A stretch of 64,000 nucleotides of DNA, taken from Escherichia coli (GTDB taxonomy: Bacteria; Pseudomonadota; Gammaproteobacteria; Enterobacterales; Enterobacteriaceae). The position numbers were made by a program, and so were the translations under genes. Position 1 is the first letter of the stretch; every line of letters starts with the position of its first letter. This document shows positions 12,288 through 13,540 of the stretch, one piece after another. The stretch is taken from assembly GCF_050320075.1 (NCBI RefSeq), contig NZ_CP190018.1; one strand, 5' to 3'. Below the pieces are notes generated by a model. It did not search any database and had not been told where the DNA came from. It was given only the letters and a program-made list of their open reading frames with translations.

Positions 12288-13540
12288 ATGTACTATTTAA
12301 AAAACACAAACTTTTGGATGTTCAGTTTATTCTTTTTCTTTTACTTTTTTATCATGGGAGCCTACTTCCCGTTTTTCCCGATTTGGCTACATGACATCAA
12401 CCATATCAGCAAAAGTGATACGGGTATTATTTTGCTGCTATTTCTCTGTTCTCGCTATTATTCCAACCGCTGTTTGGTCTGCTTTCTGACAAACTCGGGC
12501 TGCGCAAATACCTGCTGTGGATTATTACCGGCATGTTAGTGATGTTTGCGCCGTTCTTTATTTTTATCTTCGGGCCACTGTTACAATACAACATTTTAGT
12601 AGGATCGATTGTTGGTGGTATTTATCTTGGCTTTTGTTTTAACGCCGGTGCGCCAGCAGTAGAGGCATTTATCGAGAAAGTCAGCCGTCGCAGTAATTTC
12701 GAATTTGGTCGCGCGCGGATGTTTGGCTGTGTTGGCTGGGCGCTGTGTGCCTCGATTGTCGGCATCATGTTCACCATCAATAATCAGTTTGTTTTCTGGC
12801 TGGGTTCTGGCTGTGCACTCATCCTCGCCGTTTTGCTCTTTTTCGCCAAAACGGATGCGCCCTCTTCCGCCACGGTTGCCAATGCGGTAGGTGCCAACCA
12901 TTCGGCATTTAGCCTTAAGCTGGCGCTGGAACTGTTCAGACAGCCAAAACTGTGGTTTTTGTCACTGTATGTTATCGGCGTTTCCTGCACCTACGATGTT
13001 TTTGACCAACAGTTTGCTAATTTCTTTACTTCGTTCTTTGCCACAGGTGAACAGGGTACGCGGGTATTTGGCTACGTAACGACAATGGGCGAATTACTTA
13101 ACGCCTCGATTATGTTCTTCGCGCCGCTGATCATTAATCGCATCGGTGGGAAAAACGCCCTGCTGCTGGCTGGCACTATTATGTCTGTACGTATTATTGG
13201 CTCATCGTTCGCCACCTCAGCGCTGGAAGTGGTTATTCTGAAAACGCTGCATATGTTTGAAGTACCGTTCCTGCTGGTGGGCTGCTTTAAATATATTACC
13301 AGCCAGTTTGAAGTGCGTTTTTCAGCGACGATTTATCTGGTCTGTTTCTGCTTCTTTAAGCAACTGGCGATGATTTTTATGTCTGTACTGGCGGGCAATA
13401 TGTATGAAAGCATCGGTTTCCAGGGCGCTTATCTGGTGCTGGGTCTGGTAGCGTTGGGCTTCACCTTAATTTCCGTGTTCACGCTTAGCGGCCCCGGTCC
13501 GCTTTCTCTACTGCGTCGTCAGGTGAATGAAGTCGCTTAA
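12288..13540 (+). pseudogene. lacY: lactose permease, disrupted by an apparent -1 frameshift
   Basis: The LacY reading frame is split into ORF 12288..12539 ([10 protein letters not shown]...SDTGII then nonsense) and ORF 12533..13540 (LacY from ...[11 protein letters not shown] onward). Frame switch at the T4 run 12430..12433; locus is 1253 nt versus the expected 1254. Confidence 0.85.

Follow-up and report, generated by a model that had tools for sequence, protein, structure and literature searches.

The window, a stretch of 64,000 nucleotides of Escherichia coli DNA, contains a lac operon in the gene order mhpR-lacI-lacZ-lacY-lacA-cynX, which is the same as that of K-12. The features of the operon, with coordinates counted from the first letter of the window, are as follows.

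7957..9039, + strand: lacI, intact, encoding 360 amino acids, with A331P as the sole difference from K-12
9040..9161, + strand: lac control region, in which the CAP half-sites, the -35 element TTTACA, the -10 element TATGTT and operator O1 (AATTGTGAGCGGATAACAATT) are all identical to those of K-12
9162..12236, + strand: lacZ, an intact ORF of 1024 amino acids, with C>T at 9361 giving P67L
12288..13540, + strand: lacY pseudogene, 1253 nt instead of 1254
12430..12433, + strand: run of four T (T4), the site of the 1-nt deletion; the wild-type run of five (T5) consists of the last two bases of the Ile48 codon ATT and the Phe49 codon TTT
12537..12539, + strand: premature TAG stop in the original lacY frame, with TGA directly after it, giving a product of 83 amino acids (48 native plus 35 out of frame)
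12533..13540, + strand: residual ORF in the -1 frame, which begins at the Met83 codon and encodes 335 amino acids equal to LacY 83-417
13606..14217, + strand: lacA, intact, encoding 203 amino acids

The interrupted lacY and its neighbouring genes

The original prediction described lacI, the lac control region, lacZ and lacA as intact, and this description holds, as the ORFs are open at their normal lengths and O1, the -35 and -10 elements and the CAP half-sites are unchanged. The window and its Lac-intact relative, strain 746, have the same LacI protein accession. LacZ residue 67 is proline in strain 746 and K-12, and leucine in the lineage carrying T4, of which P67L is a marker. The control region contains three substitutions relative to K-12, located at the centre of the CAP site (T>C, GTTAGC to GTCAGC), in the spacer between the -35 and -10 elements (T>G, GCTTCC to GCGTCC) and in the lacZ Shine-Dalgarno sequence (AGGAAA to AGGATA). 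As the control region of strain 746, which is Lac-intact, does not differ from that of the window at any position, these three substitutions are natural polymorphisms.

In lacY, the T4 run lies within GGTATTATTTTGCTGCT, while the K-12 MG1655 counterpart has T5 within GGTATTATTTTTGCCGCT. The frame opened by the ATG at 12288 encodes 48 native residues ending in SDTGII, followed by 35 out-of-frame residues and the TAG stop, whereas LacY residues F49 to A417 are encoded in the -1 frame, which stays open, without a second break, as far as the native C-terminal end (...RRQVNEVA*) at 13540. The lacY of the relatives, like that of K-12, is 1254 nt long. Three further statements of the original prediction, that the frame breaks at the T4 run after SDTGII, that the rest of LacY lies in the -1 frame and that the locus is one nucleotide short through loss of one T, are thus confirmed by the translation in both frames and by the lengths of the gene (1253 versus 1254 nt) and of the run (T4 versus T5).

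Insertion of one T gives a LacY of 417 amino acids that is identical to K-12 LacY except for G13S and matches PDB entries 2v8n and 1pv6 over residues 1-417 (E about 1e-270). The 335-aa residual ORF is called by gene callers as a separate LacY_symp fragment, and both fragments are recorded as hits to PF01306 (LacY_symp; oligosaccharide:H+ symporter, MFS), while LacY residues 49-82 are found in neither of the two gene-caller ORFs. The window lacY does not offer an uninterrupted ORF for all 12 transmembrane helices, as the frame is lost after codon 48 and a stop follows at codon 84. It has the features of a homopolymer frameshift pseudogene, namely T5 reduced to T4, a TAG at 12537, a -1 frame running to the natural stop, and the absence of a compensating indel. 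Judged by its reading frames, it is a pseudogene of the LacY family (PF01306) and not a functional member.

Distribution and authenticity of the T4 allele

A 42-mer containing T4 is present in two of 5,426 complete E. coli genomes, Ec-U3 (human urine, Ouagadougou, Burkina Faso) and YZLc1-3 (chicken faeces, Yangzhou, China), and absent from the other 5,424. In both genomes the identical lacY is labelled by NCBI PGAP as 'lactose permease, frameshifted'. Over 64 kb, the window differs from YZLc1-3 by 3 substitutions and no 1-nt indel, and from Ec-U3 by 4 substitutions and an IS1 that is present in Ec-U3 and absent from the window. Two bases, 7154A (mhpR) and 22320A (prpE), are private to the window and missing from every other lineage sequence covering these positions. 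As it differs from both RefSeq T4 genomes, private SNPs included, the window represents a third, independent genome.

The exact 83-aa frameshift product occurs on 66 contigs (NCBI, ENA and Logan) and in 78 index blocks of a 15-billion-protein collection, where contigs and index blocks are not to be equated with independent isolates. Through this product seven loci were retrieved, one in a draft genome, one on a MEGAHIT metagenome contig and five in Logan assemblies, each made from a separate sequencing run. Ten loci beyond the window and the two RefSeq genomes were aligned (L008-L014 and L023-L025); T4 is present in all ten, and six have SNPs of their own. The lineage sequences that were read (at least 13, comprising the window, the two RefSeq genomes and the ten loci) carry T4 in 13 of 13 cases, and all of them also carry lacZ 9361T (P67L). 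For the LacZ protein with Leu67, the collection lists 129 contigs and 188 index blocks. Among the 24 longest contigs encoding it, all three kinds of place shown have a broken lacY, either split into ORFs of 83 and 335 amino acids or with no lacY product called. The latter form matches NCBI annotation practice, and at the DNA level each of the three kinds of place proved to have T4. A scan of JGI metagenomes for an exact T4 43-mer gave no match, but this zero is uninformative, as the T5 control gave only 6.

T5-to-T4 changes are also found outside this lineage. The 90% protein cluster of the 83-aa product includes other early -1 frameshifts of lacY, among them T5-to-T4 on the other common synonymous background (GCC, K-12-like), which is found in none of the complete E. 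coli genomes. The T4 on the GCC background occurs on 17 contigs, which are a mixture of noisy assemblies with shattered lacZ and clean Logan contigs. The former, represented by L017, L018 and L021, in which lacZ is also fragmented, are probably homopolymer errors. The clean Logan contigs (L019, L020 and L022) have a lac region without lacA, as in B1 O26/O111/O103-like (STEC-like) E. coli, while the complete genomes of such strains have T5. Clean T4 contigs on another background indicate that the same slippage arose independently at least once more, although rarely.

The original prediction allowed for a homopolymer sequencing or assembly error as the alternative, in which the strain would truly have T5 and an intact lacY. 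Homopolymer indel errors do occur, and the three noise-like assemblies on the GCC background, with lacZ likewise in several pieces, show the T5-to-T4 change at this run. The T4 of the window is, however, shared with two other complete genomes and with draft, metagenome and Logan assemblies, and is not restricted to one assembly or platform with indels nearby; at least 13 sequences from NCBI, ENA and Logan carry it, and these differ in laboratory, host, continent and type of assembly, with MEGAHIT metagenome contigs among them. Most of them have private SNPs, and all share one haplotype. In about 50 kb compared with strain 746, the nearest T5 relative, there are 15 substitutions and one IS150 insertion, and the lacY T4 is the sole 1-nt indel, so the assembly is not indel-prone. 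The rarity of T4 among the complete genomes (2 of 5,426, and none on the GCC background) further indicates that systematic errors do not cluster at this site. The error explanation is thus rejected, as the same allele is found in independent genomes from different continents and hosts and always on one haplotype with lacZ 9361T, and it must be regarded as very improbable. The change from T5 to T4 at lacY codons 48/49 is, with a probability of about 90%, a genuine and vertically inherited 1-nt deletion that inactivates lacY and most probably arose by replication slippage.

Predicted consequences for lactose uptake

Slippage of the replication machinery in the T5 homopolymer would have removed one T; the loss shifts the frame after Ile48 and brings in a stop at codon 84. 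The 83-aa product would retain only native helix I of the 12-helix lactose/H+ symporter, while helix II would be lost together with the conserved loop motif of the MFS, as both lie within residues 49-82. Since residues 49-82 are in neither ORF, the permease is expected to be null even by fragment complementation. Cells carrying the allele would still produce beta-galactosidase on induction, but their lactose uptake would be poor, and by genotype and classical lac genetics they would be slow, late or non-fermenters that are ONPG-positive after induction. The carriers are thus predicted, in agreement with the original prediction, to be LacY-null, beta-galactosidase-positive and slow or non-lactose-fermenting. 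The approximately 1 kb of untranslated lacY mRNA may in addition lower lacA expression by polarity. A scan of lacY-lacA for promoters and terminators found nothing above shuffled sequences.

Complementary LacY fragments can reconstitute transport when they are co-expressed. A lacY that still functions is conceivable, either through programmed -1 ribosomal frameshifting at the U run or as a split permease assembled from the 83-aa and 335-aa fragments. The frame would be regained, with LacY F49L as the product, if tRNA-Leu slipped back from UUG to UUU, and the ATG at 12533 overlaps the premature stop at 12537, which makes reinitiation conceivable. Nevertheless, the frame-0 codons GGU AUU AUU UUG CUG contain no canonical slippery heptamer X XXY YYZ, and the 87-nt stretch downstream of the T run forms no more stable a fold than shuffled sequences do (MFE -13 kcal/mol; mean of the shuffles -14.85; z = +0.74). 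The two fragments are also not complementary, as helix II and the MFS loop motif are missing from both. Finally, the two-frame form is limited to one young lineage (the same 2 of 5,426 complete genomes), and other E. coli encode lacY in one frame. Retained function by either route is accordingly highly improbable, while rare -1 slips of the ribosome on U-UUG would yield some full-length LacY F49L and a little residual activity.

A phase-variable switch, in which the T run would toggle between T4 and T5 and so turn lactose uptake on and off within a population, is the least probable explanation of all, as the location of the lesion in a homopolymer and the second, independent T5-to-T4 change on the phylogroup B1 background without lacA (L019, L020 and L022) are outweighed by a tract of 4-5 nt that is far below known contingency tracts, by T4 in 13 of 13 lineage sequences despite their SNP divergence, with no toggling, and by the occurrence of T4 in only 2 of 5,426 complete genomes.

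Lineage of the carriers, related lesions and significance

The inherited deletion can be placed by the nearest relatives of its carriers. ST963 is a lineage of phylogroup D close to ST38. Among complete genomes in which lacY is intact, those of strain 746, SCU-109, ECamp083, CE2050 and MS14384 come closest, with bit scores that imply about 9-10 differences per 25 kb. Three of these, CE2050 (PMC9429958), MS14384 (PMC10024524) and SCU-109 (PMC7407071), have been typed as ST963. The intact LacY allele with Ser13 of this ST963-related group is found on 439 contigs. Placed by their nearest intact relatives, the T4 carriers are likely a clonal sublineage that lies within ST963 (phylogroup D) or beside it. 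Searches of the literature on the carrier strains and accessions (YZLc1-3, Ec-U3 and WGS prefixes) returned nothing relevant, and no paper was found on this T4 allele or on a Lac-negative ST963-like clone.

ST1193, a pandemic ExPEC clone of phylogroup B2, is the best-known clonal case of permease deficiency. In ST1193 and other strains of clonal complex 14, a deletion-induced frameshift in lacY is responsible for the lactose non-fermenting phenotype (PMC11488385; PMC9769970). The T4 lesion resembles that of ST1193 in being a small deletion which shifts the lacY frame, has become fixed in an extraintestinal clonal lineage, with the other lac genes still in place. It differs in the background, as the nearest neighbours of the T4 carriers are ST963 of phylogroup D. 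Since only two complete genomes carry T4 and their nearest relatives are ST963 and not ST1193, the lesion is evidently other than that of ST1193. Two candidates for the ST1193 lesion itself, both nearby frameshift alleles from the 90% protein cluster of the 83-aa product, were not widespread enough, namely a 4-nt deletion of TTTG (P0004), with a full-length exact match in none of the complete genomes, and a deletion of C 36 nt downstream (P0005), found in one complete genome.

In Shigella and enteroinvasive E. coli, decay of the lac operon is usually extensive, with deletions and the loss of several lac genes. The T4 lineage shares with them the loss of lactose uptake as part of lineage-specific gene decay, but here one base is missing and the rest is intact, except for an IS1 in lacA of one lineage member. 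Atypical clinical E. coli that ferment lactose slowly or not at all have been attributed to permease deficiency (PMC9669651). The mechanism proposed for these isolates, lacZ present and LacY absent, is also that proposed for the T4 carriers; unlike that mostly phenotypic literature, the present analysis defines a molecular lesion and its clonal distribution, from which the phenotype is predicted. The laboratory allele lacY1 of HB101/RR1 and many cloning strains is likewise a LacY-null allele with lacZ intact, although it is an IS1 insertion (PMC5379014) and not a homopolymer frameshift.

Permease-deficient E. coli are well known, and the T4 lesion was already flagged in RefSeq annotation. As far as the sequences tell, the T4 lacY is a real, inherited, inactivating frameshift and a marker of a globally dispersed clone. 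In biological terms it is ordinary, its use in epidemiology is modest, and the knowledge of the lac operon and of LacY is unchanged by it. With T4, a clone that occurs in human urine and in poultry on different continents can be recognised cleanly by a single base, and the analysis of T4 is a worked example of how a true homopolymer frameshift can be told from an assembly error by public data alone. If the carriers are non-fermenters or late fermenters of lactose, they would look unusual on MacConkey or coliform media and might be missed or wrongly identified, a risk that has also been suggested for ST1193 (PMC11488385). A broader reading can be put forward, in which T4, LacZ P67L, a nonsense mutation in betI (Q89*) and an IS150 insertion together would define an undescribed ST963-related sublineage spread across continents and hosts (Burkina Faso urine, China chicken and metagenomes), the loss of lactose uptake would be positively selected in parallel to ST1193, the T5 run would be a place where slippage recurs and Lac-negative strains evolve convergently, and screens that rely on lactose would detect such clones too seldom; this combination is speculative and rather unlikely.

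Several other changes were observed in the window and its relatives. The gene betI (51658..52245, + strand), which encodes the repressor of the choline-to-glycine-betaine operon, contains a C>T SNP at 51922 that creates the nonsense mutation Q89*. An internal stop in betI is also annotated in Ec-U3 and YZLc1-3, while the gene is intact in the T5 sister strain 746. The mutation could release osmoprotectant synthesis from repression, an effect that may be relevant in urine. A copy of IS150 (about 36216..37654 of the window) interrupts the gene for the substrate-binding protein of an ABC transporter of the AI-2/sugar type; the window, Ec-U3 and YZLc1-3 all carry the insertion, and strain 746 does not. 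Together with lacY, betI and the gene split by IS150 make three lineage-specific gene inactivations within about 40 kb. The IS1 of Ec-U3 lies at the position equivalent to 49076 of the window, between betT and pdeL, and is absent from YZLc1-3 as well. In the draft genome L008 (GCA_045906235.1), 52 bp of prpE are missing (window 20894..20945). The lineage member with an IS1 in lacA is L023 (GCA_052874255.1, 7249..8075), where the element lies at about position 13909 of the window and represents further decay of the operon after the loss of lacY.
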